This document shows positions 3,001 to 21,137 of a stretch of DNA of 64,000 nt, piece by piece. The stretch covers positions 1,178,001-1,242,000 of the forward strand of contig OZ037833.1 in the NCBI GenBank assembly GCA_964035575.1, in the 5' to 3' direction. The stretch's first letter is position 1. Every line of letters starts with the position of its first letter. A model generated the notes under the pieces. That model saw nothing but the letters and a program-made list of their open reading frames with translations, ran no database searches and was not told the origin of the DNA. Source of the DNA: Rhynchopus sp. YZ270_cl-10. Taxonomy: Eukaryota. Made by a program: the position numbers and the translations under genes.

Positions 3001-3750
3001 TAACGCGTCCGTTCTTAGGCATCCGTTCTAACGCATCCGTTCTTACGCATCCGTTCTTACGCATCCGTTCTAACGCATCCGTTCTAACGCATCCGTTCTA
3101 ACGCATCCGTTCTAACGCGTCCGTTCTAACGCGTCCGTTCTGATGCATCCGTTCTAACGCATCCGTTCTACGCATCCGTTCTAACGCATCCGTTCTAAAG
3201 CATCCGTTCTAACGCGTCCGTTCTGATGCATCCGTTCTAACGCATCCGTTCTAACGCATCCGTTCTAACGCGTCCGTTCTAACGCATCCGTTCTAACGCA
3301 TCCGTTCTAACGCGTCCGTTCTAACGCGTCCGTTCTAACGCATCCGTTCTGACGCATCCGTTCTTACTCGTCCGTTCTAACGCATCCGTTCTTACGCATC
3401 CGTTCTTACGCATCCGTTTCTAACGCATCCGTTCTGACGCATCCGTTCTGACGCGTTCGTTCTAACGCGTCCGTTCTTACTCGTCCGTTCTAACGCATCC
3501 GTTCTTACGCATCCGTTCTAACGCATCCGTTCTACGCATCCGTTCTAACGCATCCGTTCTAACGCGTCCGTTCTAACGCATCCGTTCTGACGCGTCCGTT
3601 CTAACGAGTCCGTTCTAACGCGTCCGTTCTGACGCATCCGTTCTAACGCGTCCGTTCTTACGCATCCGTTCTAACGCATCCGTTCTTACTCGTCCGTTCT
3701 AACGCATCCGTTCTAACGCGTCCGTTCTAACGCGTCCGTTCTGACGCGTC
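1..3750. repeat. 14-bp tandem satellite, consensus TTCTAACGCRTCCG (~265 copies, runs off the window start)
   Basis: Uninterrupted 14-nt period with variants CTGAC/CTTAC/ACTC; ends abruptly at ...CTGACGCGTC|AGTAAT. Confidence 0.98.
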
Positions 3751-3856
3751 AGTAATAGGAGAAATCGAGAGATGGGCGCAGGAATTAAAACCCGGTAGAA
3801 ATGTACTGCGCCAATATATTTTCTGAAACCCTTATTTTTTACTATCCGTTACCCTA

Positions 3857-3965
3857 CCCTGGCACCGCCCTGGCACCACCCTGGCACCGCCCTGGCACCA
3901 CCCTGGCACCACCCTGGCACCACCCTGGCACCACCCTGGCACCACCCTGGCACCGCCCTGGCACC
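3857..3965. repeat. 11-bp tandem repeat CCCTGGCACCR (~10 copies) in the viral left terminal region
   Basis: Directly visible between the AGT terminus and the fibre gene stop codon. Confidence 0.9.
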
Positions 3966-3995
3966 GGCCGGTGCTTTCTGCCCTACCTCCACACC

Positions 3996-6537
3996 TTAGG
4001 TCATCTTCCGCCAGGAACTCCTTGAAGCAAATGGTCCAGCCTGAAGTACCCGAATCCACTTGTCTTGGGTTTGCACAGAGATGACTTCCTGAATGCGTGA
4101 TGTGTCGTTAGTGATAATTGGATTTGGTAGCGTCTTATTATTGAGCAAGAAGAGAGTTGTTCCACCAAAGTCTGATGGAGCATTGGAATTATTGCTACTG
4201 TTATAAAGGGACGGTGGACCTATTTTCCACCCTAAAATTTCAGATTTTCGCTTTCAGACCAAATTTTAAGTCGATTAAAAATTGTTATTATCCCGCTGCT
4301 ATCCCGCTGTTATCCCGCTGCTATCCCGGTCACTCTTTCCCCCCCTTTTTACCCTTAAACATGCACAATCCTGTAAACCAGAGATACGCTCCACGTGTGG
4401 AACGTATGGAAATCCATACGTGAATTATTTTTGAAAAGGTAGAATCCATACGTGTCCATACGGAGGTAATTTGGGTTTTGGATTGGGGCTGGGGTGGGGG
4501 TAGGTGAGGGGCGGGGGCTCCGACCCGCCTCTCACCTACCCCCCCACAGAATTCTACTCGTAGGGGACAATTTTCTTCAATTTAACCGGAATGGGGGAAT
4601 GCAGCATGGCGAAAGAAAAAGTAGCGCACCGTGCGCCTGCGGCGCTAGCTAACGTGTTGCGGAACCTCTGGAAGCTCACAGGGAGGCCGTGATGGTGATT
4701 GAAGACGACGAGACTGAGGACGACGATGCGAGCTTTTGGCAGCAAAGCCACCAAAAGCCCTCCCTAAGGGAAAAAAGCGCCTGGACGCGATGTTCAACGC
4801 ACAAGGCAAAGGTGCGCAAAGGGGAGGTGAAGGAGGAGCTGCTGCAGGTGAAGGAAGAGGTCTTGGAGGTGGAGCAGCCAGACAGCCCTGTGGACTCTGA
4901 GGTGATGGAGATAGATGCCCCAGCAGCAGAAGTACAAGCAGCCCAACCTGCCCAACCAGCCCCACCATCATCCTCAGACCCTCTGCCCCAGCTGCAACGC
5001 CAGGAAGGAAGATGGCCTTGCTGCAGCCTGCGCTGGCAAAACCGGCATGAAAGCGAGCACGCAAACTGGCCGAACGCCAGAATCCCACCCCAAATTTTTA
5101 ATAAAATTTTTTTTACCATCCCAAAAGTTAAAAAGTTAAAATTTAACTCCAAAACAGGGGGACCTATTATCCTAGGGATAATAGGTCTACCCGGATAATA
5201 GGTCCACCCCCCCTTTACACATAGATCTCTTGGTCGTCTAAGTTTGAGTTAAAGTCAAATGATGTTGGATGATTTATTATTGTACGTGGGTTGAGGTCTA
5301 TCCCATCTATGTCGATTCTCTTCCAACCACTCCATGCACTACCTTTGCGTAGTCGTGAGTACCGTCTTTCACTGAATACCGCAATGAGTTCCTGAATAAC
5401 ATAAGTATCGAAAAGCTTAACGTCCAGTATGATCTCATAGCTACCAATATCTTCAGTAGGACCATTTTGTAAGTTACCTAGTTTGTACATCAGGTATACC
5501 CCACTTGCTGTCTTTGTGTCAAGATCAATTACGGTGTTGGTGGGTAACCCTCTGTCATCCTGGTATGGTTGATATATTTTGTTTTCGATGAGTAACCTTG
5601 ATGCATTGTCTTTGTTGTCCATAGTAGATTCCAAGGTTGTTGTTAGGGCATTGTCTTTACTGTCCATAGTATTCTCAAGTGTCGTTCGTAGTGTGCTATC
5701 TTTGTTGTCCATCGTATTCTCAAGTGTCGTTCGTAGTGTATTGTCTTTACTGTCCATAGTAGATTCCAGTGTTGTCGTTAATGCATTATCTTTGCTATCC
5801 ATCGTAGATTCCAAAGTTGTTCGTAGGGCATTGTCTTTACTGTCCATCGTATTCTCAAGTGTTGTTCTTAGGCCAGTGTCTTTGGTATCCATAGTAGATT
5901 CTAGTGTTGTCGTTAATGCATTGTCCTTCGTGTCCATAATGCTCTCAAGTGTTTCCTGACTCAAGTCTTCACTTGATGTCCATGCTGTCCATGGTACTCC
6001 CACACCTTTACGGATTCGAACATACTTCTTAAGGGAGAACACAGCAAGAAGCTTTTGGGTGACATAGTTTTCGAATACCTTTGTCGTGACAATGAGTTCA
6101 TAGCTGTTCAAGTTTGTGGGTGCGTTTTGTAAGTTCGCCCAGTTGTACAAGTAGTGAACACCTTGGGTTGTGTATGGTGCCACATTCAAGTCGTCATTTG
6201 TATCATCATCTTTATGGTTGTAGTATGGTGTGGGTATCAACTCTCTTGTGATTGTGTCTTTGGTATCCATAAGAGTTTCGAGATCACTTCTTGCTGTATC
6301 AATTCTCCCTTGTACATCACTCATGTAGGCTTGAACTTTCCATTCAAGTTTTCCCCCAATATCTTTTGACACAAGCAACTGATCATCACCCGAAGCTTCA
6401 GGTACCCTATGCGTGACAATCTCATCAATATGCTTCGTAACAATCTCGCCATCCTCCTTTATAGCAATATGACCATCAGGAGCATTCTCTGGTAGGATTG
6501 ATGTTGATTTATCGGATTGAAGATAACCAAATACCAT
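3996..6537 (-). CDS. Fibre/receptor-binding-like virion protein (~509 aa when reconstituted) interrupted by a transposon; segments 6537-5216 and 4203-3996
   Basis: Three copies of a knob-like domain (DLN/DLD...GxY...NxP...QELI...RxR...WxxW) and eight 15-aa [15 protein letters not shown] repeats. Removing 4206-5215 plus one TA joins ...QEIYV to [10 protein letters not shown]...SSWRKMT* in frame. Confidence 0.75.
4206..5215. mobile_element. Non-autonomous DNA transposon (1010 bp, 23-bp TIRs, TA TSD; Tc1/mariner-type signature)
   Basis: AAGGGACGGTGGACCTATTTTCC (4206-4228) versus the reverse complement of 5193-5215, AAGGGGGGGTGGACCTATTATCC. TA at 4204-4205 and 5216-5217. Confidence 0.9.
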
Positions 6538-6582
6538 TATTTTACTATAATACACATCACAATGAATGATGTGTCGTGTCAC

Positions 6583-7035
6583 TTAGGGCATACGTTGAAT
6601 AGTGATTGTCACTGAGATCTTCAATTCAGGTATCTTCTTGCTATCTCTTTCTATCTGTTCCTCAAGTATCTCATCCTCATCCTCATCCTCCTCCTCCACC
6701 TCCTCCTCCTCCTCAACCTCCTCAACCTCCTCAACCTCCTCAACCTCCTCAACCTCCTCAACCTCCTCAACCTCCTCAACCTTCAGATCTGCTAAGTCAT
6801 CATTACATGGTGAAGAAGCTTCAGTAATCTTCTCTAAGTTCTTGATATGTTTCTTCGATAAACAGTGTTGATTATACCCAAGCTTCTTCACACTCTTTTC
6901 ACACGCAGCACAGAAAGCCATCTCATGTTTCTGTCTCTGGTAAGACGCCTTTGCTGACGCAATCATCTTCTCCTTGTTGTTGAGGTAGTAATTCTTGTAG
7001 TACTGTGAATTATGTGGTGCCATTTTTATAGACAT
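6583..7035 (-). CDS. Viral Zn-finger protein with acidic (EEV)n tail; start may be 7023
   Basis: YYKNYYLNNKEK followed by CxxC...HxxSKKH; 9-bp repeat encoding EEV. Confidence 0.75.
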   Translation of the reverse strand: MSIKMAPHNSQYYKNYYLNNKEKMIASAKASYQRQKHEMAFCAACEKSVKKLGYNQHCLSKKHIKNLEKITEASSPCNDDLADLKVEEVEEVEEVEEVEEVEEVEEVEEEEEVEEEDEDEDEILEEQIERDSKKIPELKISVTITIQRMP

Positions 7036-7079
7036 TGTGTTTTTTATTTATATTCTTAAAAAAAAGAAAGTAAAAGAAA

Positions 7080-10000
7080 ATGATAACATCAGATAAGAAA
7101 CTCAAGGAGATAACTCAAGAGTACACCACCCCAATCAAAGCCTATGAGAAGCAGATCAACCTCCTCGGTAAGGCAGTGACGACTGGGGTATTGAGTGTTG
7201 GTACGATCCAAGCCATACAACAGGATGTCCTTCTAATTCAAGACAAGATCGTAAATCTCAAGTTGGAACAGAAGAAGGCTCTGGTACCATTTCATGAGGA
7301 GAAGAAGAAGGATAAGGTTGTCAAGAAGAAGATCACAGACAAGGAGCTTCTACCATTCGTACAAGAAGATATCAAGGATCTGAAGACAGCTGTTGCAAAG
7401 GCTAAGAAAGATCTCAAAGGTACCTTCTTCAAGCAGAACAAGTCAAGATTCGTCAGAGACTTCACAGAGGAACAACAAGGGCAGCTGAATGATATCGAGA
7501 AGCAACACAAGGAAGCCAAACGTAAGATTCTTGATGATGCAAAAGAGACACACAAGGAAGATATCATTCGGGGGAGGCTTGGAATAAAGAAGGAAGAACA
7601 GACAACTATCACTGAAGACCCCAACCATCTGGAGGAACTTATCGCAAAAACCACAGTAAAAGTCATCCATGGAGACAAAGGTACAGATGCCAAGATGATA
7701 ATAGAGCTCCCTGAACCGCTAGATGAGTACTTCTCTTCAACAATACGTGCACAATATGACACCATCACCGCATTCATTCAGGGAGACTTAGAAGGCAATC
7801 GCACCAAGAAGGTTAAGTTTATCTTGATGGCTATCTTCAGCAAACCAGACAATGAATCACCCAAACAAATCAGCAAGGAAGTATTCCTCAACAGTGTACT
7901 TGCAACAGACGTACTTGACTTAGATGCAGTTATGAAGCAAGGGAATGAGCTCTTCAACCGCGATGAAGGGGAGTCAGGTTTATTCTTTGTTGGCTTCAAG
8001 TATGTCACGATATTAACCTACAACACACAGATGAGCATCGGTGGTGAATATATTGATGTTGTGGAGAGGTTCAGTGCCAACTCCAATCTCAAGAAGAATA
8101 TTGTGAATGTAAAGAATGATGAGTACCCAGAAGTCAACAACGCATGCTTCCGTTTTGCTGTGATGGCACATGAGCATAACTTCCCGAAAGACGCATCACG
8201 AGTGAGCAAGTACTACAAGAAGAAGACTGGATGGATCGACTCAGATTATGATTTTTCTATGTTTACTGACTACACGCTTCCTACAACGGATCAGCAGGTC
8301 AAACACTTCCTGAAGGAAAACAAGAACACATCAATTAGCATATATGGTATTGAAGCTGCAGGCAAGTTCCATGTGTTGAGGCACGAGAAGTCCCCAAAGG
8401 AAGACCACATCAACCTCCTCTTCCATGACAACCACTACATGCTGATCAAGAACCTGAGCAAGATGATGGGTGATAATAACAAATATGTGTGTCCCAAGTG
8501 TTTGTCAGTCAAGAAGGATACCAAGAAGGAGATTGATGCCCACCTTGAGTCATGCAACGAGAAACCAACACAGAGAACACAGATGGCAAGGTCTGCTATT
8601 ATTGAGTTCTCCGAGAACAAGATGAAGAACAAAGAGATGAAGCCATTCATTATTACAGCAGATTTCGAGAGCTTCCTTGACACAAGAGACCAGGATACAT
8701 CATACAGCAAGACAAAGATAAAGACGCAGACAGGCAAAGATGAGACAACCATTCTCCAAACCCATCGTGCAGCCTCTTTCTCCCTAAAGCTTGTACCCGA
8801 CACTTCACTCAACTTTGCAGGTAAAACACTTTACACATACACACCTTCAGATCAAGATGATGCAGTTGAGTACGAGACTGACTTACTTGGTCAATTCAAC
8901 AATGCCTGCCAGGAGATAGCCGAGGACGTTGCAGCATTCATGACCACAAGCCAGAAGGAGTATGGTAGCATTGATAGTGCATGCATCGCATTTACAGCTG
9001 AAGATAAGGACAGACATGAAGAAGCCAAGAAGTGTGCATTCTGCAACAAGACCTTTAACTTCCAAAACATCAAAGTCAGAGACCATTGCCATTTGACTGG
9101 GAAGTACAGAAGGGCCTTGTGCTCTTGGTGCAACCTCAACAACAAGACAGAGTACAACATCCCCATCTACTTCCACAACGCCAGAGGATACGACAACAAC
9201 TATATCTTCAAGATGCTGAAGCAGTATGACTCAAATGGCGTCAATGTTCTGAACACCAACAGCCAAACAACAATGCTGATCAAGATGGACAAGTACACGA
9301 AGGTCAAGGTAAATCATGGGAAGGAGATTAAGAATAGGAAGATTTCGTTCCAGGTGAAGGATAGTCTACAAGTCATGTCGTCTTCGTTGGACACGCTGTT
9401 GAAGAACTTACCCCATGATCAGAAGGTACATCAGCTAGACTACATCAAGACCGCACACAGGGATATTGACGTGAATGATAAAGGCATGCTTGACCTCTTG
9501 TTGGGTAAAGGAGTGTTTCCATATTCGTACTTCGACAGTCCCAAGAAGCTAAGTGGATCACTACCATCGAAAGACCTATGGTATGACTGTCTAAGGCAGG
9601 ATGACATCAAACAAGAAGACTACGATAAAGCCTGCAGAGTGTGGAACACTCTAAAGTGCAAGACCTTCAAAGACTACCACGACTTCTACCTCAACATGGA
9701 TGTGCTTGGTCTTGCAGACGTCCTACAGGCACAAAGGAAGAACCTCCACACAACACATAAGCTGGACATTTGCCACTACTGCAGTCTCCCGAGCTTCAGC
9801 TATGATGCATGGCTACTGAAGCAACAAGAAGATGATGTGAAGATGAAGACCCTGAAGGACCCAGAACTATACGAGTTGTTTGAGGATCAAAAGCGTGGAG
9901 GGTTTACATGCACTGTGAAGAGACACTGCAAGGCCAACAACAAGCACACAAGAAGCGCAGACAACCAAGGCAAAGAAGGAGACACACACCTGTTGTACAT

Positions 10001-11336
10001 TGACGCAAACAACTTATACGGGTGGGCTATGTGCAAGAAGCTTCCCTACGATGATTTCAAGCTGATAGAATGCAAGAGTTTGGACTCAGGAGCAGAGCTC
10101 CATCGAGGGTTAACACCCGAGGAGACTGAGAAGATGATTGCCGACTACAACCCAGAGAGTGACACAGGTTATGCTCTAGAAGTTGACCTTGAGTACCCTT
10201 TGAGCCTCCACGACAAGCACTGGGACTTCCCTCTTGCACCATACAATAGGACTGTTAGAAGTGGAGAGCTGTCAGACTACCAGAGGAAAGTACTTGATGA
10301 TGAGAAGCATGCAGAGGGTGGGAAGCTTATTGCAGACTTCAAAGACAGAGTGAAGCAGACATACAACATTGAGTACTTGCAGTTCCTCCTCAGGCAAGGT
10401 CTGAAGTTGACGAAGGTCCACCGCATTGTCTCATTCAAGCAGGACAACATCATGAAGCCATACATTGACAAGAACAGTGCACTGAGAGCACAGGCAAAGA
10501 ACGATTTCGAGAAGGACCTGTACAAGTTGCTCAACAACTCCATCTATGGGAAGACCTTGGAAAATGTTCGTGGTAGGACAGAGATGAAGAACATCCCTTA
10601 CGACAAGACAAAGTGGGTGAAGGGGAAGGAGGTTCCAATGACAGAGGAGGAAATCAAGGAGTACATAGCAAAACATCAAAGCAAACCATTCTTCAACTGC
10701 AACACTGTCGACCTGAAGAGTAGCAAGATACTTCAATTCATGCAGGGGGACGTCACTCTTGACAAGCCTGTTTACATTGGCTCACAAATCCTGGACTACA
10801 GTAAGCTTCTCATGAACAGCTTCTTCTACGACACCCTCATCCCACATTTCGGAAGGGAGAACGTGACCATGGCCTATACCGACACTGACAGCTTTGTGCT
10901 GGAGATAACAACAAAGGATCTTGATGAGGAGCTTGCCAAGCTGTCTGCGGACTTCGACTTCAGCAACTACCCAACAACCCACGAGCTGTATGACGTAAAC
11001 AGCAAGAAGGTCCCAGGGAAGTTCAAAGATGAGCTGGCTGGTGATGTGATGGTTGAGTTCATTGGCTTGAGGGCAAAGTGCTATGCCTACTCAACGATCA
11101 AGAAGAACGACGACAACAAGGCCAAGGGTATAGCAAAGTCTGTCAGTAAAACTCTCAACCTGGACACCTATCGAAGTACCCTTGAATCCCACAAGAAGCA
11201 CGTTGTGACGATCAACAGCATCGAGAAGAGGGATCATGAGCTGCATACAGTGAGGTCTCAGAAGATAGCATTGAGTGCCTTCGATGACAAGAGGTATATT
11301 TGCGAGGATGGAGTCACCACAAAGGCCTACCGATAA
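7080..11336 (+). CDS. polB: Protein-primed family B DNA polymerase (pPolB), 1418 aa
   Basis: Exo motifs DFES, FHNARGYD, YLNMD; Pol motifs YIDANNLYG, KLLNNSIYGK, YTDTDS; inserted EndoVII-like CxxC..DHCHLTGKYR..CxxCN; OTU-like N-terminal NACF...NHY. Confidence 0.97.
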   Translation: MITSDKKLKEITQEYTTPIKAYEKQINLLGKAVTTGVLSVGTIQAIQQDVLLIQDKIVNLKLEQKKALVPFHEEKKKDKVVKKKITDKELLPFVQEDIKDLKTAVAKAKKDLKGTFFKQNKSRFVRDFTEEQQGQLNDIEKQHKEAKRKILDDAKETHKEDIIRGRLGIKKEEQTTITEDPNHLEELIAKTTVKVIHGDKGTDAKMIIELPEPLDEYFSSTIRAQYDTITAFIQGDLEGNRTKKVKFILMAIFSKPDNESPKQISKEVFLNSVLATDVLDLDAVMKQGNELFNRDEGESGLFFVGFKYVTILTYNTQMSIGGEYIDVVERFSANSNLKKNIVNVKNDEYPEVNNACFRFAVMAHEHNFPKDASRVSKYYKKKTGWIDSDYDFSMFTDYTLPTTDQQVKHFLKENKNTSISIYGIEAAGKFHVLRHEKSPKEDHINLLFHDNHYMLIKNLSKMMGDNNKYVCPKCLSVKKDTKKEIDAHLESCNEKPTQRTQMARSAIIEFSENKMKNKEMKPFIITADFESFLDTRDQDTSYSKTKIKTQTGKDETTILQTHRAASFSLKLVPDTSLNFAGKTLYTYTPSDQDDAVEYETDLLGQFNNACQEIAEDVAAFMTTSQKEYGSIDSACIAFTAEDKDRHEEAKKCAFCNKTFNFQNIKVRDHCHLTGKYRRALCSWCNLNNKTEYNIPIYFHNARGYDNNYIFKMLKQYDSNGVNVLNTNSQTTMLIKMDKYTKVKVNHGKEIKNRKISFQVKDSLQVMSSSLDTLLKNLPHDQKVHQLDYIKTAHRDIDVNDKGMLDLLLGKGVFPYSYFDSPKKLSGSLPSKDLWYDCLRQDDIKQEDYDKACRVWNTLKCKTFKDYHDFYLNMDVLGLADVLQAQRKNLHTTHKLDICHYCSLPSFSYDAWLLKQQEDDVKMKTLKDPELYELFEDQKRGGFTCTVKRHCKANNKHTRSADNQGKEGDTHLLYIDANNLYGWAMCKKLPYDDFKLIECKSLDSGAELHRGLTPEETEKMIADYNPESDTGYALEVDLEYPLSLHDKHWDFPLAPYNRTVRSGELSDYQRKVLDDEKHAEGGKLIADFKDRVKQTYNIEYLQFLLRQGLKLTKVHRIVSFKQDNIMKPYIDKNSALRAQAKNDFEKDLYKLLNNSIYGKTLENVRGRTEMKNIPYDKTKWVKGKEVPMTEEEIKEYIAKHQSKPFFNCNTVDLKSSKILQFMQGDVTLDKPVYIGSQILDYSKLLMNSFFYDTLIPHFGRENVTMAYTDTDSFVLEITTKDLDEELAKLSADFDFSNYPTTHELYDVNSKKVPGKFKDELAGDVMVEFIGLRAKCYAYSTIKKNDDNKAKGIAKSVSKTLNLDTYRSTLESHKKHVVTINSIEKRDHELHTVRSQKIALSAFDDKRYICEDGVTTKAYR

Positions 11337-11345
11337 GTCTTCAAT

Positions 11346-11368
11346 ATACATATCTCTGCGATATGTAT
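11346..11368. terminator. Putative bidirectional termination/polyadenylation hairpin between polB and MCP
   Basis: ATACATATC-TCTGC-GATATGTAT perfect 9-bp stem; exact reverse-complement copy at 15747-15769. Confidence 0.55.
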
Positions 11369-11384
11369 GTCTCTTATAGCAGTC

Positions 11385-12791
11385 TTACAGCACAGCACTG
11401 ACCTCTTGCACAATCCCTGTCTTCAGGTTAAAGTCAACAACCTTATCGTAGTACACCAAACAATACAGGTACATGTCGTAGCTGGCCTCTCTCTCAATGT
11501 TCACTGTCAAGGTGTTTGCCTGGGTGCTTGAGACGCTGTCTTGGTTCAATGTGTTCTGAAGGTCAAAGCAGTACATGGGGTAGTACTTCCAGTCGTTGTA
11601 GGAGAGCAGCCCTTGAGTGGTGAACCCCATTCCCTCAGGATCCTTGTAGGCACTATGCATCTTCATGTACTCCTTGTAGGCAGACTCCCACTTGTTCTTA
11701 CCCACCTCAATTTCAAGATCCTTGCTTGGCACCTTGATGCCGTTCAGGTCAACAGAGATCTTCCTCACCATACCACTGTCAAAGCGCGACATATCATGCT
11801 CTTGACTCGTTTCCCTGGCTTTCGTTTGGCAGAAGATGATTGCACGTTTGATCCTTGTGTGCGACTTGATTGGTACAGGCCAGGAGATGTATGTGTCGCC
11901 AGCTGCAAACTCCTTCCTCTGAATTTGTGAAGACTCAAAGACCGCTTGAACCATACCAGACTTGTTGATGTAGCTCAGAACTCCAGCAAGCGGTGAAGGA
12001 GCCAAGGTGACACGAGGCATCCAGATCCTCATACCATACCCAACCCAGTTCAAGGCACGGTCACTAACCCCAGAAGAGCGAAGAACTAGAGCACTGTCGT
12101 CATTTACCTCAAAATTGAACTCCATAGGTATGTTGGTGAACATCTTCTTGTGGTACTGGAATATGTTGAAGATAAGACTGAGAGGAACCATGCAGTGTAT
12201 CTCTCTGTTCCCTGTGGTGCGTCTTGCGCGGTGTGAAGTGCTTGAGTCTCTGTTTGCAGTGTCATTGAACCCATCCACAAAGTCATCATTAACAGCATCC
12301 TTCCAAGTGATGTAGTGGCTAAGTAGATTGCTCCCCACAGTGTCATCGTATTGATTGGTGAAGTGAATGAGTGACTCTGCATTCATCTGCTGTCCTGCAA
12401 AGTTGGGAGTGTCCTCGATGTTGACCCCACCGATCTTGAGTGACTTCCTTCTGAAGAAGTTGAGAACATTTGACGTGAAGGCAGCTTTGTTATCATCATT
12501 GTCAGCAAAGGTCCATGCTTCTGTAGCATCCAGGGTCTTGTGTGCTGCAAGGTCTTCATACCCGTTACCACCTGCGTTGACCTTTACCATCTTGAAGGAC
12601 ATCTCCAAGAACCCTTCAGAGGGGATGATGTGGCTGCTCTGGTCAAGAAGGGTGAAGGTGAAGTCCCGCTCGACTCTTCCAAACTGGTTCTGCAGGTTGC
12701 TTGACTTCCCAGTGTCTTGGATGGTGATGTAGTCGTACCCACTGACATCGGAGTGTCTCTTGGTTTTCTCACTCAAATTGTAGAAGCTCAT
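11385..12791 (-). CDS. Major capsid protein (double jelly-roll, Polinton/PLV type), 468 aa
   Basis: Size, beta-rich character and motifs (FFRRKSLKIGGVNIED, VPLSLIFNIF, LNGIKVP, YPMYCFDL, LYCLVYYDK) typical of Polinton MCPs; viral context. Confidence 0.85.
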   Translation of the reverse strand: MSFYNLSEKTKRHSDVSGYDYITIQDTGKSSNLQNQFGRVERDFTFTLLDQSSHIIPSEGFLEMSFKMVKVNAGGNGYEDLAAHKTLDATEAWTFADNDDNKAAFTSNVLNFFRRKSLKIGGVNIEDTPNFAGQQMNAESLIHFTNQYDDTVGSNLLSHYITWKDAVNDDFVDGFNDTANRDSSTSHRARRTTGNREIHCMVPLSLIFNIFQYHKKMFTNIPMEFNFEVNDDSALVLRSSGVSDRALNWVGYGMRIWMPRVTLAPSPLAGVLSYINKSGMVQAVFESSQIQRKEFAAGDTYISWPVPIKSHTRIKRAIIFCQTKARETSQEHDMSRFDSGMVRKISVDLNGIKVPSKDLEIEVGKNKWESAYKEYMKMHSAYKDPEGMGFTTQGLLSYNDWKYYPMYCFDLQNTLNQDSVSSTQANTLTVNIEREASYDMYLYCLVYYDKVVDFNLKTGIVQEVSAVL

Positions 12792-14188
12792 TTTGATAAG
12801 CGGATTCTATCTTGAGCAAATAGAAATTGTCTCAGCTGTGTTTCATCGTTGAGTATGTCAGGTTTGAGTGTGGGGAATGCTCGTTGTGCTATGCCCTTCA
12901 TGCGTTCAAAGGATGGGTCTAGCGGTGGGAGAAGCTTAAGTCTTTTGTTGGTCTTCGGGGGTGTCGGGGTCTCCTGAGTTGACGTCTGTGGCTCCTGTGT
13001 CTCCTGTGTGTCATCTGACTCCCTCACTCTCTTCTTAGCTCTTGCCTCTGCTCTGGGGTTACTGTTCAGATCTTCATCTTTCCAATTAGGACCAGCAAGG
13101 TTGGTCATGAAGCTGTCCATTTGTGACTCGTGTTCTGCTTCTTCTACAGCTGTGTTTTGCGGAGCATCACCAAAGTCTTGTTCTGGAGTAGATCTTGGAG
13201 CATCACCAAAGTCTTCAGGGTCGTTGACCCCTCCTGGGTCTTCAGCCTCCTCCTCTTTCACTTTCAACAACCTCTCAATCCTCACCTTCCTCCCATTACT
13301 CAGTCTTGCATTGACTTGAGCCACACTAACCACACTAAAGATCTCCCTTGAAAACTTTTGCTTTGTCCCCTTTGCATGTATATTCTTACTCAACAACACC
13401 CTCACTCTATCACCAGGTTTTACACTAGACTGCGACACACTTGCTTTATCCAGGTTCATGATGAGTATGCTGACATCGTCGTTGGTGACAAGGTTCGGAG
13501 GCTTCTTGATGGTGCTGTGGTATCTGTTGTTGTAGGCGTACGTTAGCTCCTGAAGGCTGTCTACCCAGTTTGCTGTCTTGTTGATCTCAAAGTGCTTTTG
13601 CAGGATTTCTCGCAGTGTTCTTGAGATGCGGTCGACAATCCCAAGGGCGTTATGGTCTCCAACCTCATTCATCTGGTGTTCTATGCTGTGGGCGCTGAAG
13701 ACTTCCTTCACCATCAGGTTGTTGAATTCTAACCCGTTGTCACTCATGATCGTTTGAGGAAGGTCCTTCTTATCTGTCTGTATCTGATGTAGTATGTCTG
13801 TCAAGGCTTCTTTGACACTACCCATAGTCTTGTTCTTCAGGGGTCTGGTGTACAACTTTCTACTAAAGACGTCTATCAAGTTCAGGATCCACGAGTAGCC
13901 TTTGTTCCTTGTCTTGAGCTTCTGGAAGTCGAGGAGGTCCATCTGCATGACGTGGTTGATCTCGAAGGCTGTGATGTGACCCGACAGCTTGCTTGGTTTC
14001 TTCCTGAACAGCTGATATGCCCTCTGCTTGTGTATGTAGTCCTCTATCTCGTCAAGGGTATACTTTTCTTCGGGGTTGTGTAGCTCTGCGCCTGCAAACT
14101 GAAAGTCAAACAACCTCGCAGGATCAGTGATGTAACCTGAGTCTCGCCATAATTTGTTCAAGTTTACTCTTACTTCGTTTGAGCTCAT
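12788..14188 (-). CDS. rve-family (retroviral-like) integrase
   Basis: QMDLLD, LIDVFSRK, IMSDNGLEF, GIVDRISRTLR, YNNRYHSTIK, GDRVRV; acidic low-complexity C-terminus, no chromodomain seen. Confidence 0.95.
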   Translation of the reverse strand: MSSNEVRVNLNKLWRDSGYITDPARLFDFQFAGAELHNPEEKYTLDEIEDYIHKQRAYQLFRKKPSKLSGHITAFEINHVMQMDLLDFQKLKTRNKGYSWILNLIDVFSRKLYTRPLKNKTMGSVKEALTDILHQIQTDKKDLPQTIMSDNGLEFNNLMVKEVFSAHSIEHQMNEVGDHNALGIVDRISRTLREILQKHFEINKTANWVDSLQELTYAYNNRYHSTIKKPPNLVTNDDVSILIMNLDKASVSQSSVKPGDRVRVLLSKNIHAKGTKQKFSREIFSVVSVAQVNARLSNGRKVRIERLLKVKEEEAEDPGGVNDPEDFGDAPRSTPEQDFGDAPQNTAVEEAEHESQMDSFMTNLAGPNWKDEDLNSNPRAEARAKKRVRESDDTQETQEPQTSTQETPTPPKTNKRLKLLPPLDPSFERMKGIAQRAFPTLKPDILNDETQLRQFLFAQDRIRLSK

Positions 14189-14208
14189 TTATTTCTTCTA
14201 CACAAAAA

Positions 14209-14610
14209 ATGGTCACTACAAGCAGATATCAGAAGACACCAGTGTACGTATCACCTGTCGACATGCAGAGGATTGCAGATGCCTTAGGTGGGAAGAGCAA
14301 GACCGTATCAGTTACGTTGCATGCAAGTGGTATCAAACGGTATCCATTGCCACTAACCTCAAAGCAGAAGGAGAAGGTCAAGGAGAAGGGGTCAACACGC
14401 ATCACTTTAAGTCAACCACAGCTGCTGTTCATTGGAGGTGATAGGAAGGAGGGAGGGTTCTTGCAGTTCTTGGTACCGTTGTTGGCAGCAGGAGCAAGTG
14501 CACTCGCAGGCTCGCTTGGGACACAGCTTGGTAGCACAGCAGGGAAGTTCATTGATAGGAAGGTGAATGGGCGTGGTCTGATAGCACCTGGTAGAAGGTT
14601 AAAAAAATAG
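14209..14610 (+). CDS. Adenovirus pX/mu-like core (maturation substrate) protein, 133 aa
   Basis: Basic protein with KEGGFLQFLVPLLAAGASAL, resembling the GG|ILPLLIPLIAAA segment of adenovirus pX; AAAAATG start at 14209. Confidence 0.65.
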   Translation: MVTTSRYQKTPVYVSPVDMQRIADALGGKSKTVSVTLHASGIKRYPLPLTSKQKEKVKEKGSTRITLSQPQLLFIGGDRKEGGFLQFLVPLLAAGASALAGSLGTQLGSTAGKFIDRKVNGRGLIAPGRRLKK

Positions 14611-15062
14611 GGGGCTTTGCTCCTGAACCTCTTCGAGATGATGAGATTATAGACTGGTGTAGAGATCAGGGCATAGAGCTGAAAGGTATGGTGATGAGGG
14701 ATGAGATTACTGACAACATGGATGGGTTGTACTTGATAAACTTAGATGAGAGAGAGGGTAAAGGAACACATTGGGTAGGTTTCTTTCATGACACTGACCT
14801 TACTTTCTACTTTGACCCCCTTGGTTTACCCCCTCCCCAAGAATTGACTGCACACTACAAACCCCTCACATACAACAGCAATCAAATACAGGATGTCTCT
14901 TCTGCACTATGTGGCTACTTTGTGTGTTTGTTCTTCAAGTACATGCATACGTATGAGGACAAATATGAAGGCTTCTACGCAATGACACACGGGATCTTTG
15001 GCAGCGACACAAAAGAAAACGAACGCGTACTTCTTGAGGATGTGTACGATGTATCAAAATGA
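14607..15062 (+). CDS. Adenain-like cysteine maturation protease, probably expressed as a -1 frameshift fusion to the upstream ORF
   Basis: GTHWV (His), FDPLG (Asp), QIQ, LCGYF (Cys). The frame is open from 14595 but has no ATG before 14688. Confidence 0.9.
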   Translation: MGGFAPEPLRDDEIIDWCRDQGIELKGMVMRDEITDNMDGLYLINLDEREGKGTHWVGFFHDTDLTFYFDPLGLPPPQELTAHYKPLTYNSNQIQDVSSALCGYFVCLFFKYMHTYEDKYEGFYAMTHGIFGSDTKENERVLLEDVYDVSK

Positions 15063-15694
15063 CCTCATATTGTGTAAAGTGCAAGACAAAGACCACAGAT
15101 GTCGATGGAGAGGAGACAACAACAAAGAACGGACGTCGAGGTGTGAAGAGCAAGTGTGCTGATTGCGGTACAAAGAAATTCAGGTTTGCCAAAGGATCTA
15201 CAGCTGAAAAACAAGGAGGAGACATTGTGAAGGCACTCAACGACAAGTTCCCAGACACAGAGTTCCACTTCCCAGTCATGAACGAAAAAACAGGACAAGT
15301 CGAGAAGGCTAACTTCATGGGACCAAACACAAAGCTGGAAGAGAGAATCAAAGACCTTGAGAAGAATGCTGAACGTGCATGGAAGGGAGAGCAGATACCA
15401 AAGGAGGACATCATAACACCAGGCAAATCAAGGTTCGATGAAAGTGCGATGATACACGACCTGCAGTACAAACATGCAGGAAAGATAGGGAAGAGTGGGA
15501 AGGATGTACGTAAGATGAAGCACAAAGCAGACCTACAACTCATCCGATCAAACATCTACCATGCACTAGACCCCAACAACAAGAGCTCAATAGACAGAGT
15601 ACAGCACATAGCGAGTGTCCCCACCTTCATCCTCAAGATCCTAGGGGAGACAGCGTATGGCAAGATCACAGGGAATGGAATAGAGATAAACTAG
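15059..15694 (+). CDS. Zn-ribbon plus parvovirus VP1u-like phospholipase A2 protein
   Basis: YCVKCK...CADCGTKK, then FMGPNT...DESAMIHDLQY...KADLQL (HD catalytic dyad). Confidence 0.85.
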   Translation: MTSYCVKCKTKTTDVDGEETTTKNGRRGVKSKCADCGTKKFRFAKGSTAEKQGGDIVKALNDKFPDTEFHFPVMNEKTGQVEKANFMGPNTKLEERIKDLEKNAERAWKGEQIPKEDIITPGKSRFDESAMIHDLQYKHAGKIGKSGKDVRKMKHKADLQLIRSNIYHALDPNNKSSIDRVQHIASVPTFILKILGETAYGKITGNGIEIN

Positions 15695-15696
15695 AC

Positions 15697-15987
15697 TCAG
15701 GAGCAGAGCTCCCTCGAGGGTGCTAACAGCACCGAAGACTCAAATAATACATATCGCAGAGATATGTATAGACACACTTGTATTGTGACCAACCCGTTCC
15801 CAAGCACAACATTATGCCTCTTAGAGATGTCAGCCAGTACATCAAGCACCTTCTTGTTGTCTCTTTCTTCTTGCTTCTCTTGCTTCTCCTCCATGTCTAC
15901 CCCACTACCCTCCACCAAATCACTCCAGGTTCTCTTCCTCCCTGATACCCTTTCACTATCCCTCACTAGATTTGACCACGATGACAT
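15697..15987 (-). CDS. Small viral protein of unknown function
   Basis: A-tract ATG 6 nt after the mCP stop; contains GSG/GNG motifs; 3' part overlaps the hairpin, so the end is uncertain. Confidence 0.5.
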   Translation of the reverse strand: MSSWSNLVRDSERVSGRKRTWSDLVEGSGVDMEEKQEKQEERDNKKVLDVLADISKRHNVVLGNGLVTIQVCLYISLRYVLFESSVLLAPSRELCS

Positions 15988-15993
15988 TTTTTT

Positions 15994-16734
15994 TTAGTAC
16001 GAAGATTTTACTTTGCGAAGGATAACATGATAGTTGACGTTCTCCCCTTGGTTGTTGATGCGCTTCCCATTCTGGTCTGTGAGCCAGAACCTTATGCTGT
16101 TGATCTGGGTCTTGTTGGTGGGGACATAGTACGAGCTGCCAGGTTCTACCACGTTGTACAAACTACTAGGAGGGAGGGAGGGTGGGCTGACAACATACAA
16201 GATTTGCGACTTGGTGCCTGATGTGCCGGTGTTGTGGTAAGAATACTTTGGGTTCACAAGATCACAGTGTACAACGACTGCTTGGATTCCGTTTGTGATG
16301 TCTGCGACGTGAGGCGCAGTGTTCACACCTGCACTTATGATGGTGTTCTCAGCAAAGCCTAAGATGCCATAGAAGGAGCCTGTTCTGAAGTTCACTTGAT
16401 AGTTAGCAGGTAGGGTGATCTTAATCTTCTGCAGGGCTAGGATGGGCTCTAGTGTGATTTCCGATGGTATGTGGTCGTTGATCTCAGAGATGCTGTAGTT
16501 CCCGTCACCGAACACTATTGTCTCCCATGAAGAACCGTTGTCACGACTCCACTCAAAGAAGTTGTTGCCTTGCTGCTGGCTGATGTTTGTCCACGAGTAG
16601 TACTGGCTGCTCTTGATGAGACTTATCTCGTAGCTGTCACCTTCGTCAAGGTATATGGGAGGGTTGTAGGCAACAGTGAAGTCAGTGGAGATTGGCTCTC
16701 CTTCAGAGGAGACAAAGAGTGAGAGTTGTTCCAT
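15994..16734 (-). CDS. Minor capsid protein (penton, single jelly-roll), 246 aa
   Basis: YYSWTNIS..NNFF, GNYSISEIN, ILGF, VHCDLV, IRFWLTDQNG motifs typical of Polinton mCP. Confidence 0.85.
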   Translation of the reverse strand: MEQLSLFVSSEGEPISTDFTVAYNPPIYLDEGDSYEISLIKSSQYYSWTNISQQQGNNFFEWSRDNGSSWETIVFGDGNYSISEINDHIPSEITLEPILALQKIKITLPANYQVNFRTGSFYGILGFAENTIISAGVNTAPHVADITNGIQAVVVHCDLVNPKYSYHNTGTSGTKSQILYVVSPPSLPPSSLYNVVEPGSSYYVPTNKTQINSIRFWLTDQNGKRINNQGENVNYHVILRKVKSSY

Positions 16735-16736
16735 TT

Positions 16737-17357
16737 TTATGAGTTGATTTCTTGTGTGAGGAGTTTGTGTTCCTCTAGGTCTATCTTGTTGTTGTTCAGA
16801 AGCCAGTCAAGGATAGTGGCTGCTTCTTGTTTGATTTCTTGACTTGTATTACCTGCCTTCTTTCCTCCTATCAAGATCGTCAGTCTATTCATTGCACCCT
16901 CGGTGTCCATTTGATACACACCACTCCCAGTCTTACCTCCTTTACCTTTACCCATACCTTTCCCTTTACCTTTACCTGTCGATGGTGTCGGAGTAATGCT
17001 ACCATCAAAAGTAGGCGGATTGTTGGGGTTATGGAAGTTCCATGTCGGACCCAGGTTCGGTGTCAGGTTCGGTGTCAAATTCGGGGTCTGCATACTACTA
17101 ATATGTGATAAAGCTTCTTGGAATGATGTCTGGTCTGAAGCACTCGGTTGTGGTGTGGATGTTGAGGTATATGTTGCAATTCCTGATAAGAAGTTGTCAG
17201 TTTGGTCTCCCTCATCTGAAGTCTTGATCGGGGCATCAATCTCCTTCAGGGTTTCTTGTTCGTTGAGAATATCAGATCGTTGTTGTGCTATGGAGTTCTT
17301 CAGTCTACCAATATCGCGTAGAAGCTTCTCGAGACTTGATGTATTGTTCAGTTGCAT
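16737..17357 (-). CDS. Polinton-type protein of unknown function
   Basis: C-terminal RLTILIGGKKAGNT...ILDWL motif after a GK-rich linker and KTGSG; AAAAATG start. Confidence 0.7.
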   Translation of the reverse strand: MQLNNTSSLEKLLRDIGRLKNSIAQQRSDILNEQETLKEIDAPIKTSDEGDQTDNFLSGIATYTSTSTPQPSASDQTSFQEALSHISSMQTPNLTPNLTPNLGPTWNFHNPNNPPTFDGSITPTPSTGKGKGKGMGKGKGGKTGSGVYQMDTEGAMNRLTILIGGKKAGNTSQEIKQEAATILDWLLNNNKIDLEEHKLLTQEINS

Positions 17358-17374
17358 TTTTTGTTATTGCAAAA

Positions 17375-18115
17375 ATGATACGCAATTACGTTACGAGGAA
17401 TGAGTCACCTGAGGATGATGAACATTCAAAGCTTCTTCCGTCGTGGCCATTCAGGATGTTGTCTGTCGGATCTTCTGGGTGTGGGAAGAGCACAGTGATG
17501 GGGAATATGCTGATGAACAAGGAGTTGAAGTTACCGTTTGACAGGGTCTTCGTTATCAGCACAACACTACACCAAAAGATCTACCAGGTTATGATGGAAC
17601 ACTTTGCAGACATTGACGAGAAGATACGAAGTGAGCTGGAACGGGAGTTGAAGAAGAAGAAGGTGAGTGAGGAGAAGATCGACGAGACCTTAGAAGCCTT
17701 GAAGCCAACAGCAGAGTTCTTCGACAGTGTTGATGAGTTCGATGTGGAGGACCTTGACCCCAACCAGAAGAATCTTGTGTTGTTGGATGACATTGTGATG
17801 GAGAAGAAACAGAGAGACTTCATTGACCTGTATGTACGTGGACGTCATCGCAACATCTCACCAGTCTACCTGAGTCAGAGCTTCTATGACACCCCAAAGG
17901 CGATACGACAGAACTGTAGCTGCTTCCTGCTGTTCAACCTCAACAAGAAGGAGAGACGGATGATAGCGACTTCATGCAGCGACCTTGAGCCTGATGAGTT
18001 CAACAGTATGTTTGAGGGTCTGCCCCGGTACAACTTCGTCATGATCGACAACCAGCCTGTTGTTCCTGAATTGAAGTATCGAAGGAACTTTGATGAGATT
18101 CTGTTTCCAGGATGA
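17375..18115 (+). CDS. FtsK/HerA-superfamily (poxvirus A32-like) genome packaging ATPase
   Basis: Walker A GSSGCGKS, Walker B VLLDD, RGRHRNIS..LSQS..PKAIRQN. Confidence 0.95.
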   Translation: MIRNYVTRNESPEDDEHSKLLPSWPFRMLSVGSSGCGKSTVMGNMLMNKELKLPFDRVFVISTTLHQKIYQVMMEHFADIDEKIRSELERELKKKKVSEEKIDETLEALKPTAEFFDSVDEFDVEDLDPNQKNLVLLDDIVMEKKQRDFIDLYVRGRHRNISPVYLSQSFYDTPKAIRQNCSCFLLFNLNKKERRMIATSCSDLEPDEFNSMFEGLPRYNFVMIDNQPVVPELKYRRNFDEILFPG

Positions 18116-18126
18116 TAAGAGAAACG

Positions 18127-18282
18127 ATGTCCGACAAGACGAGAGACTCAGAAACGAAGGTTCCTCGAGGGAATTCAGCCCGAGATGTGAGTTCGAGTGG
18201 GAGTGTTGGGAGCAAGATAGTGACTGTGATGTGTTGCAGGAGCAAATGTGTAGGGAACCCCAAGGTTGTGGTCAAACGGTAG
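18127..18282 (+). CDS. Possible 51-aa last viral ORF (MSDKTRD...CCRSKC...VVKR)
   Basis: Starts 11 nt after the ATPase stop; below the ORF-track cutoff; no recognisable domain. Confidence 0.3.
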   Translation: MSDKTRDSETKVPRGNSARDVSSSGSVGSKIVTVMCCRSKCVGNPKVVVKR

Positions 18283-18540
18283 GTATTGTTATACACATGC
18301 CATGTACGCGGTGAGGGGCACGTTGCAGATGTTGAGGAAGGAGATAAGAAAAGCCCATTCCCACCGTACTCACTCTTTTTGTTCATGTCCCCACCTGCCT
18401 CCTTCACTTGTGCCCACTCTTTTTCCACCCTCAACCTGCATTCCGACTATTTCACGCCGCATTGCCGCGGAATTCCAATGTGAACGACGGAGCACACCAT
18501 TCCTCCCTATTATCATCACCGGCCCCACACTTACACAGTA

Positions 18541-20163
18541 ATGCACCAACAGGAAACTACACAAATGACAAAATACAACAAAATGTGGCAATGGGCTCGA
18601 AAGGCCCATGACCAGGTCATTGAAGTTGGGGGTTTGAAAATTGGTGGAGGAATGTCCTTGAGCGTACTATGTTGGGAAGGCGCGAAGTACGCATGGCATA
18701 CATACAATGTAACAAACTATGGTCCAGACACCCTCTACGATCTCAAGAACAAGATGGAGGAGTCCCACGCACACCTCGACGAAATGCTCAAGAAGATTGT
18801 CACAGCACCGTACAAACCCGAAGTACCAAATGGCAGGGAGTATGTTCCAAGACAGCAAGATGGTGCACTGGAGAAGGATTTACAAGAGAACATCGCCAGC
18901 GAGACAGACTTCTTCTTGTTGATGGGTGAGAGCGGCTCAGGCAAAACCACGATGATGCAGCATTTGCTGAAAAAAAACTACAAGGAAGGCGTGATCTTTG
19001 TGGCGGTCCATGCGGATAAGCTGGTGGATGTGCCTAAAAACAAGGTGAGAGATGTGGTTGAGGCGGCTGTGCTCGAGCAGTTCGAAGAGTGCAAGGATCA
19101 TCCCCGCCATAAGCCCAGTTTTACGGGCTTCATCAAACACGCTAACGAGGTCCGGAAGAGGGCGAAGAAGGGGAAGAAGGCACATCCGCTGATCATCTAC
19201 ATCACTCTGGATACGAAGGAAGCTACAGAGCTCAGTTACGAGACTATGGGGAACATTGCCGTGGCTGTCGGGGGAATGGCAAGCGACCTTTCATCGAAGC
19301 AGAACTGTTGCAAGACCATTCTCGAGTTCTCCAAAACAGGAATATCCGACACGCTCAAGAAAATCCGCACTGATTTCGACCGTTTTGAAGTGGGTGCGAT
19401 GACAGAGGAGGAACTCCTGGCTATTGGGGAACAGCTAGTGCTGAAGGGTCCCCTGTATCTTGCGATGACAGAGGCCGAGAGGAAGGCGTTCCTAGTGAAG
19501 AAGGATCCCCAGAATCTTATTGGGCCGTATCTCAAGCACTATCACGACTGGTTGGGCGGACAGACAAAGACCTTGGCGGGGTTCATCAAAACAAAGGTGG
19601 GGTCTAAAAGTATGCAGAGTCTTTGTTGCCTTTTTGTACAATATGATTATTAACCACACATCTCATCGCAGTTGAGTCTGCCACCGCTGAAACAAAGGAT
19701 GAGGTTTTGACGAAGCTGAAGGCGGGTATGCTGTTGTTGGGGTGGGTAGTTTGTCAATTATGAGACACACGTATTGCACAGGGATCGATGGGAGGTAGTA
19801 CCGTGCGAATATTATTATTTTATGAATGATTAAACACATCACTTCGCAGGTATCGATGACAAGTATGACCTCGCATGCGAAAGCCTGGACAAACAGCCGC
19901 ATCTGGATGTTCTGAAGGGCATGGCACAGGCTGGAGCAGATGGTGTTCCCCACCGTGCTGCCAACAATGCTGCTATTACTGAACTCAGCAAACGTGACTC
20001 AGACTCTACACTGATCCGCACAGTGGGTGAGACCCACGTGAGGATCCACCGCTACTCTCACGCACTGTACCTGAATGGCGTGAAGGGGCCAGATGACGAA
20101 GGCGTGGAGAAGAATATTACAGAAGTGAAGGAGAAGTTCGGGATGAACGCGAAGTCTGCGTGA
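18541..20163 (+). CDS. Intron-containing P-loop NTPase (AAA/STAND-like); exons 18541-19609, 19672-19725, 19850-20163; 5' end uncertain
   Basis: YVPR...LLMGESGSGKTT. Two GTATGC...CGCAG introns (19610-19671, 19726-19849) splice in frame into the 19921-20163 ORF. Confidence 0.8.
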
Positions 20164-20521
20164 TGATATGGGTGTGGGGTGATGTACTTTTGTGGTTCTT
20201 TTTTTTTTGTTTATTTGTGTCTGGAGGAGGTGCGGGGAAGGGTATGAAAAAAAAAGAAAAAACAGGGTGTTGTCAACTGTCCCAACAACACAGGCTCAGC
20301 CGGGTGTGGGTAGGAATAGTAAATATGTTTTGTGATTATTTTTTATTTGTATTTGTCTCTGGAGGGTGGGAACAACGATGGGTCTTACTTGCACAATATG
20401 GGGGAAAAAAAAAACCGTCCTATGAGTTGAGTGTATGTCTCTGGTGCTTTGAGTCACAGCGAGGGGTTTTTGGTGATACTGTTATATTTTTGGAGGATAA
20501 CAAATTATGGTTCAAAAGAAT

Positions 20522-20672
20522 CGCGTCCGTTCTAACGCGTCCGTTCTAACGCGTGCGTTCTAACGCGTCCGTTCTAACGCGTCCGTGTTAACGCATCCGT
20601 TCTAACGCGTCCGTTCTAACGCGTCCGTTCTGACGCGTCCGTTCTGACGCATCCGTTCTAACGCATCCGTTC
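20522..20672. repeat. Second, short block (~11 units) of the 14-bp satellite, same orientation
   Basis: TTCTAACGCRTCCG units. Confidence 0.97.
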
Positions 20673-20673
20673 A

Positions 20674-21137
20674 CAGCTGTCGCACATGTCGCAGTCTGCG
20701 TTTGAGACCTTTGAGCACACAACGGGGCAGAGGATTGCGCGCGCAACCGGCGGAGTGCGCCTGCCCGCAGAGGTCGCTGCCGTTGTCGAGACCTTCTCCG
20801 GATTCCACGGCTTCCCCCTCAACCCCGTGTCTGCACCGCTTGAGAAGGAGAACGTACAGGCTGCCGGGGACGTGACCCCCCCGTTCCTGCGCAACACCTA
20901 CAACATCTCTGCTGTGCCTGCCAGCGGCAAGTCGAACATCCAGGCGATTGCGCAGTGCCAGGGCCAGTACGTGCGTGACGAGGACCTGCTTTTCCGTGTT
21001 TGTGAAGTAAGCGTGCTATCTATATCATCGTTCACATCGTTGGGTTCATCAACCACAGCAGCTAGAGAGTGTTTAGGATTTCCCAAAAGAAAACCAAATG
21101 TGCTGTCTATCTCAGCATACTGTGTTGAGCTAACGTT
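20674..21137 (+). pseudogene. Internally deleted duplicate of the S53 peptidase locus
   Basis: 20674-20987 matches 25932-26245 and 20986-21137 matches 27654-27805, with about 5 substitutions in total; joined at a CT microhomology. Confidence 0.93.

Follow-up and report, generated by a model that had tools for sequence, protein, structure and literature searches.

The 64,000-nucleotide stretch of contig OZ037833.1 analysed here (the window) contains, at positions 3751 to 20521, a defective copy of a Maverick-like virus, not an intact Maverick. Its last gene is a spliced NTPase, which likely occupies a regular cargo slot 3' of the viral packaging ATPase; sequence comparison suggests that different copies of the virus hold different paralogs in this slot. 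We postulate that the virus multiplied recently, that its cargo slot is shuffled among copies and that the right terminal repeat was lost from the copy in the window, a reading to which we give slightly better than even chances.

The viral core and its sibling copies

The element has a Maverick/Polinton gene set and measures about 16.8 kb, a typical size, given that vertebrate elements span 12.7 to 24.6 kb (PMC8097293). Its core consists of the following features, in which ORF stands for open reading frame and MITE for miniature inverted-repeat transposable element.

3996..6537, minus strand: tail/fibre-like viral ORF, a label inferred from its repeats; no Pfam match; interrupted by the MITE
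4206..5215, no strand: MITE-like insertion of about 1010 bp, bounded by 25-bp inverted ends and flanked by TA at either end
6583..7035, minus strand: small acidic ORF; weak C2H2 zinc-finger match, below the cut-off
7080..11336, plus strand: putative family-B DNA polymerase (PolB), presumed protein-primed, 1418 aa; 24-member cluster
11385..12791, minus strand: double jelly-roll major capsid protein (MCP); PF21738, E 8.6e-11; 20-member cluster
12788..14188, minus strand: rve integrase; PF00665, E 1e-10
14209..14610, plus strand: small core-protein-like ORF (pX-like); Adeno_PX below the cut-off; 16-member cluster
14688..15062, plus strand: adenovirus-type cysteine protease; PF00770, E 6.4e-7
15059..15694, plus strand: DUF5679 ORF; PF18930, E 4.8e-13
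15994..16734, minus strand: presumed minor capsid protein (penton), 246 aa; 25-member cluster; no informative Pfam match
16737..17357, minus strand: viral ORF, function unassigned
17375..18115, plus strand: A32-type packaging ATPase, last core gene; PF04665, E 7.5e-11; 19-member cluster

The rve integrase, double jelly-roll capsid protein, A32 ATPase, adenoviral protease and DUF5679 domains all exceeded the Pfam cut-off. The 1418-aa ORF, which we take to be PolB from its motifs, yielded only an internal Endonuclease_7 (endonuclease-VII) domain in Pfam, and the 246-aa ORF is presumed to be the penton from its size, position and conservation. Rfam gave 0 matches.

Clustering at 90% identity gave 20 members for MCP, 24 for PolB, 25 for penton, 19 for the ATPase, 16 for the pX-like ORF, 10 for the integrase and 2 for the DUF5679 ORF, which amounts to about 20 to 25 sibling copies with protein identities of 89 to 100%. 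Cluster members sit on long ENA contigs, and identities were taken from the members listed (at most 15 per cluster). Among 14 listed members each, median identity was 99% for MCP, 98.5% for penton, 98% for PolB and 96% for the ATPase; we therefore conclude that the virus family spread recently. A search of a viral contig collection with MCP found no relative, and a scan with the ATPase found one weak locus (L001, 34% identity).

The MITE is skipped by contigs of runs X4 and X6 (joint 4203->5216), and six sibling proteins of the tail/fibre-like ORF (378 to 509 aa) extend beyond the MITE break. The MITE contains a short repeat (4599-4653), further copies of which are at 39710-39763, 57955-58012, 59086-59122, 61070-61121 and 63550-63579. 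A hairpin-like motif of 24 bp is present at 11345-11368 and 15747-15770, in both cases between convergent viral genes, and a 28-bp motif occurs three times (10083, 15694 and 18145), twice directly past stop codons and once in PolB; an X1 contig lacks the copy inside PolB. Both motifs are candidate viral transcription signals. A 9-residue repeat, in up to about 40 in-frame copies, enlarges the C-termini of the sibling integrases P0067, P0069 and P0075.

A spliced NTPase gene in the slot after the ATPase

18116..18564, plus strand: leader of the cargo slot, common to sibling loci; matched by P0047, P0029, P0007, P0050 and P0112
18565..20163, plus strand: cargo NTPase gene; exons 18565 (or 18541)-19609, 19672-19725 and 19850-20163; protein with a presequence-like start, a hydrophobic helix, an AAA+/STAND-like NTPase and a probable winged helix

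The first-pass annotation had placed a spliced NTPase gene in the right arm, and the gene model bears this out: splicing of two GT..AG introns (19610-19671 and 19726-19849) yields one open frame of 478 codons. A four-exon model was ruled out by 6 internal stops. The paralog P0036 (46% identical) continues without a break across both introns, and its match to the last exon is at 40%.

The same annotation held that virus and NTPase travel together, and proposed as a check that the gene be sought beside the virus elsewhere. Joint travel stood up: the region from the ATPase to the NTPase is multi-copy, and sibling ORFs cross it, reading from the ATPase tail into NTPases that are 41 to 47% identical to that of the window. 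P0047 starts at the last bases of the ATPase (18112) and continues into a 46% identical NTPase, the first residues of P0035 are those of the ATPase (17/17), and the start of P0029 matches 18093-18146. P0007 and P0050 have a leader in common from 18302, P0112 is an ATPase whose frame continues to 18187, and the first 10 residues of P0008 (10/10) come from 16027-16056. In an exact look-up of ORFs spanning junctions, 8 of 10 were absent from the collection. A single virus-mediated transduction, as originally proposed, does not fit a recurrent slot filled by differing paralogs in different copies, and neither does replacement of the right arm by the NTPase in the window copy, given that the slot follows the ATPase at sibling loci. 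Two joints in X1 contigs touch the same region: at 20388->18075 a contig leaves the NTPase 3' region and re-enters the ATPase tail, and at 20551->20296 one passes from satellite into the NTPase 3' region. These hint at tandem cargo units and at other satellite junctions.

Co-location on contigs, which were told apart by their lengths, points the same way. NTPase sequences are present on 24 of the 31 virus-bearing contigs (19 of 31 before seven further NTPase clusters were listed). The seven clusters, picked from those with representatives on virus contigs, contributed 12 new members, all 12 on virus contigs and 9 on contigs other than that of the representative. In a tree of 43 of the 50 NTPase rows (the 7 dropped were missed by the Walker A pattern), the clade of the window NTPase (support 100/100) holds 12 rows, one per contig, 11 of them on virus contigs. 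Near-identical last exons were all on virus contigs (6/6). Contig 1313960, which carries close copies of nearly all sequences tested, may be an allele of the window locus. The stretch is also present in runs with other, coded organism labels; no RNA run was among those listed as containing it, which says nothing about expression.

Two hallmarks of nematode Maverick cargo are present here, namely, an intron-containing gene in a recurrent, poorly conserved terminal slot and N-terminal modules swapped between cores. Identities were computed for 13 of 14 hand-picked pairs: P0003 and P0303 are 25% identical in the N-terminus versus 100% in the core (over 200 aa), with values of 28% and 88% for P0009/P0010, 70% and 51% for P0004/P0023, and 71% and 51% for P0309/P0310.

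A family search recovered at least 47 NTPase clusters, from ENA or the window itself, at 37 to 90% identity excluding the window's own. Pfam assigned AAA_16 to 43 of 44 members and nSTAND3 to 35 of 44, with the window protein below the cut-off, and matches in a PDB sequence search with the NTPase profile were confined to Walker A regions. A structure model of exon 1 (pLDDT 81) aligned with Dark (Z 13.1, root mean square deviation 3.6, 215 aligned), and Apaf-1 and CED-4 stood on top of its Foldseek list, followed by ORC. The last exon, modelled at pLDDT 55 with the order helix-helix-strand-strand, had no Pfam match; its leading Foldseek rows were mostly winged-helix proteins at weak scores (E >= 0.04), and the modelled C-terminus is a probable winged helix. 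A hydrophobic 17-mer was found in 38 of 52 members with a sufficiently long N-terminus, versus 1 of 54 core windows, and leaders such as MTKYNKMWKALRMCST presumably resemble mitochondrial presequences. A ubiquitin-like N-terminus in P0044, suspected by eye, found no support in Pfam.

From these sequence features and models, the cargo protein is predicted to be a membrane-anchored, probably mitochondrial, Apaf-1/CED-4-like ATP switch. Two results count against this prediction: Cdc6/Orc1 (Z 12.5), TnsC (Z 12.3) and MuB (Z 12.0) tie with Dark as fold matches, and the N-terminal hydrophobic score of the window NTPase itself is low (1.19). We speculate that the protein acts in conflict, triggering cell death or stress either in defence or as a selfish addiction factor; this is the role we find most likely, at a little under even chances. 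A neutral passenger and a TnsC-like targeting factor both seem to us less likely than a membrane-anchored STAND-like conflict switch.

An alternative hypothesis for the slot is that the NTPases are a host gene family that the virus adjoins through common satellite-rich, recombining regions or through targeting, the gene itself being neither packaged in the virus nor mobilised by it. Several observations point in this direction and weigh against the cargo interpretation. NTPase sequences outnumber virus copies, and junction points vary by locus (16056, 18091 and about 18146). The first co-location test was borderline, with close paralogs on virus contigs in 12 of 15 cases versus 4 of 10 for the sedolisin control (Fisher p 0.053), so that the control itself shares contigs with the virus, and co-location on Mb-size contigs is not adjacency. 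Over the whole NTPase tree, the virus-contig label is unclustered (12 changes versus 12.7 when shuffled), and for 15 of the 39 NTPase contigs no viral gene is listed. However, two of these 15 hold junction ORFs with viral sequence (P0035 and P0008), so the viral-gene lists undercount. At six other loci the NTPase has an identical orientation and lies directly 3' of the ATPase, no viral right end separates the two genes, and the youngest NTPase clade is spread one per contig across 11 virus contigs; we consider the host-family explanation improbable. About as improbable, in our view, is a functional rival that is compatible with cargo status, in which the NTPase would be a TnsC/MuB-like integrase partner and would direct the insertion to 14-bp satellites. 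The Z scores of TnsC and MuB, the probable C-terminal winged helix and the two termini that adjoin related satellites would suit such a partner, but the N-terminal hydrophobic helix and presequence-like leaders indicate a membrane, and a dedicated partner should co-vary with the integrase, whereas the NTPase is variable (37 to 97%) and the integrase core is not (85 to 99%).

The ends of the element and its rearranged right flank

1..3750, plus strand: 14-bp satellite array of the left flank; consensus TCTAACGCATCCGT, 267.6 copies
3745..3750, plus strand: candidate target-site duplication CGCGTC, left copy (6 bp)
3751..3995, plus strand: left terminus of the virus; AGT start; ten 11-bp repeats at 3856-3965; no inverted partner in the window copy
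20164..20491, plus strand: 3' part of the cargo gene, present in multiple copies in X1, X4 and X5 and covered in X6 too
20492..20521, plus strand: 30 bp seemingly specific to the window copy, ending AAGAAT; no right terminal repeat
20522..20673, plus strand: satellite piece of 152 bp (10.8 units), opening with the right CGCGTC copy (20522-20527)
20674..21141, plus strand: rearranged right flank; a 314-bp, 99% copy of sedolisin gene 25932-26245, then a 156-bp, 98% copy of 27654-27809

Both junctions described in the first-pass annotation are as claimed. On the left, TTCTGA-CGCGTC (3745-3750) is followed by AGTAAT, and on the right, AAGAAT is followed by CGCGTC (20522-20527) and CGTTCTAAC. CGCGTC flanks the element on each side, with an overlap of exactly 6 bp (the next base is A versus T), but the right flank is rearranged. 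The match in satellite register had been thought to have an appreciable chance of being coincidental; a break placed at random in the left array would begin with CGCGTC with a probability of 0.025, so that coincidence is unlikely, yet not negligible. In addition to what the annotation described, the satellite on the right is only a short piece, fused to the sedolisin and 27654-27809 copies.

The intact Maverick/Polinton has terminal inverted repeats (TIRs) and AGT..ACT or AG..CT end motifs (PMC8097293). The window copy has AGT on the left and AAT on the right, and, as previously claimed, it has no inverted left terminus on the right: the reverse complement of the left 250 bp found no partner in 18116-20521 (best local score 24, reached in 19 of 100 shuffles), and self-BLAST of the window revealed no inverted left/right pair. 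The left terminus is corroborated by the sibling integrase P0071, whose frame breaks at residue 227 and passes through 39 satellite-like residues into the viral terminus, read from its first codon; the terminal sequence is the same and the satellite-like flank is different. The 39 residues resemble the reverse strand of the satellite (scores of 46 to 48, versus 27 to 29 for the forward strand), and their back-translation hints that the integrase may prefer GCGT-like satellite sites. No bridging contig for the left junction was among the longest pieces listed, and the left-terminus pattern had 0 matches in metagenome contigs. A search for ORFs across the terminal 11-mer array, intended to catch a sibling right TIR, gave 1 weak match to an unrelated repeat; in a second search, none of the 150 listed of 262 matches resembled the virus beyond the array.

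The right junction is real: an X5 contig bridges it (20449-20554) with 0 differences at a depth of 45, which excludes the misassembly at 20521 that had been named as a possible refutation, with the caveat that the assembly and X5 may come from one and the same sample. An X5 contig also covers 20986-21200, and the join at 21141, which is unique, is spanned by a contig at a depth of 33, near the 45 at the junction. Up to 620 bp from the right junction there are three more joins; the sedolisin and 156-bp pieces are joined through a 2-bp microhomology, and since both pieces are copied from 5 to 7 kb away, we conclude that the flank was rearranged. Sedolisin itself has at least 14 near-identical family members.

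The similarity of the window copy to other copies runs out at about 20480-20491. Contigs from X1, X5 and X6 cease to match at 20491, the X6 contig continuing with 27 unlike letters, and the summed depth of X5 contigs, which is not a measure of copy number, falls from 848 (20450-20488) to 63 (20489-20527), with the bridging contig supplying 45 of the 63. The last 30 bp thus appear private to the window copy, which argues against a family-wide end at AAGAAT. A family end at 20480 (GATACT) was set aside, as matching contigs of three runs extend to 20491 and no duplication would result from the flanks.

The cryptic right end proposed in the first-pass annotation would, in its strongest form, be a single fixed end at AAGAAT common to the family. 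The 6-bp duplication directly after AAGAAT and the reality of the junction in X5 speak for it, but the multi-copy cover stops short of this point, the X6 contig departs before it and AAGAAT has no resemblance to the left terminus; we regard such an end as very improbable. Rather unlikely, but a more serious competitor, is the hypothesis that the whole family lacks TIRs and has a fixed AGT left end and a right end loosely set in the cargo 3' region, with CGCGTC a true target-site duplication. Several points favour a TIR-less family, and two of them, the register and the missing joint, also weigh against loss of the right end in the window copy. A random break would yield the CGCGTC register in only 2.5% of cases, the left terminus was found independently in P0071 next to another flank, and the copies part from the window copy within a narrow zone. 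A right TIR directly past 20480 should link the right arm to the left terminus through a joint that changes strand, and no such joint was among the best-supported ones listed (15 of 72 rows and 12 of 42 rows). No right end of a sibling was seen, and loss is therefore an inference. Conversely, no mechanism is known to us that would allow an rve integrase to process a second end of arbitrary sequence with precision, and beside three other joins in the right flank, one more is unremarkable. Mavericks are defined by TIRs with AG..CT-type ends, and in other genomes most copies are degraded and without TIRs (PMC8097293).

Loss of the right terminal repeat from the window copy remains our preferred reading. 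The integrase would have inserted the element at a GCGT-like site in a 14-bp satellite, with a 6-bp duplication, and recombination between copies would exchange cargo cores and N-terminal modules. The right repeat was likely lost during or after insertion into the satellite, through a break at or near the end or through local rearrangement; the broken end may then have been healed with about 30 to 40 bp of filler and the flank retained or re-joined in register. A bolder proposal, which we offer tentatively and hold to be somewhat unlikely, is a TIR-less protist Maverick family in which the left end is fixed, the right end falls within the 3' part of a captured spliced gene and insertion into 14-bp satellites leaves exact 6-bp duplications; its dedicated slot for mitochondrion-anchored, hypervariable Apaf-1-like NTPases would be a eukaryotic counterpart of prophage defence hotspots.

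Further features lie to the right of the element. A plus-strand gene with an apparent intron (21350-22700) had no Pfam match; its closest Atlas clusters (0.92) consist of unnamed proteins, for the most part fungal, and a weak lead (0.82) points to HSDR_N restriction-endonuclease domains. The gene product is possibly a Crinkler-like nuclease. The minus-strand ORF at 22872-23309, also without a Pfam match, resembles on visual inspection the end of a Ulp1-type cysteine protease and, with the adjacent AT-rich, repeat-laden region (23600-25200), is perhaps the relic of another mobile element. A plus-strand ORF of 1870 aa (28090-33702) has tandem cysteine-rich repeats (periods of 144 to 288 bp) and no Pfam match. 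A perfect 704-bp inverted repeat (40121-40824 and 41807-42510) surrounds 14-bp CGTTG-type arrays, satellite-like in style, and is likely a young non-autonomous element.

Relation to known systems

The element resembles Maverick/Polinton in its presumed PolB, rve integrase, double jelly-roll capsid protein, A32 ATPase and adenoviral protease, its length, its AGT start and its candidate 6-bp duplication (PMC8097293, PMC10120064). Unlike them, the window copy has no TIR and no ACT or CT right end, contains a spliced gene and carries a MITE-broken ORF. If sibling copies also prove to lack TIRs, the model of excision and integration of these elements would change.

In its modelled fold (Z 12 to 13) and its probable C-terminal winged helix, the NTPase resembles about equally the STAND proteins Apaf-1, CED-4 and Dark and the Cdc6/Orc1 and TnsC/MuB AAA+ clade. 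It differs from these proteins in having no sensor repeats, no recognised effector domain, a predicted short N-terminal membrane module and a single acidic residue in its Walker B motif. Crinkler/RHS CR-NTPases, which have a C-terminal restriction-endonuclease domain, are likewise an expanded, recombining, modular NTPase family tied to mobile DNA; here, in contrast, the frame ends at 20163 after about 100 aa of probable winged helix, leaving no room for a C-terminal nuclease.

Introns within Polinton-like elements are known as introners (PMC11957031), and gene capture by large transposons has been reviewed (PMC6431247). Protist endogenous viruses have been treated as intronless, with genes predicted by prokaryotic tools (PMC10120064), so cargo of the kind reported here would be missed. 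Defence-like accessory genes are listed for these viruses in 10.64898/2026.10.13.758929, the available part of which has no NTPase cargo. In the open literature, exclusive of preprint supplements, we found neither NTPase cargo in Mavericks nor a TIR-less Maverick family. The NTPase is thus far a concrete, testable candidate for a factor with which endogenous Polinton-like viruses might defend their single-celled hosts or addict them.

In the literature found, intron-containing, module-swapping Maverick cargo is described for nematodes, and an independent case with a death-signalling-like NTPase suggests that a cargo slot is a general trait of these viruses. Nematode Mavericks have a cargo region with wasp/wosp proteases and krma kinases, a slot of 2 to 5 kb in which intron-containing cargo has N-terminal and catalytic modules swapped by recombination (Widen et al., 10.1101/2022.07.12.499685). 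The element in the window, like these, combines an intronless viral core with a poorly conserved near-end slot that holds intron-containing genes, and its cargo is modular and belongs to a family partly tied to the element (47 of 235 in nematodes). It differs in its cargo, an AAA+/STAND-like NTPase whose N-terminal modules are presequence-like and hydrophobic instead of ubiquitin-like; in its slot, which comes after the ATPase instead of the integrase and in the window copy is not closed by a TIR; and in its host, which is presumably no nematode, the style of its cysteine-repeat and sedolisin genes suggesting a diplonemid-type protist. By analogy, the two systems would follow the same logic with a different cargo, a different slot and, in all likelihood, a different host.

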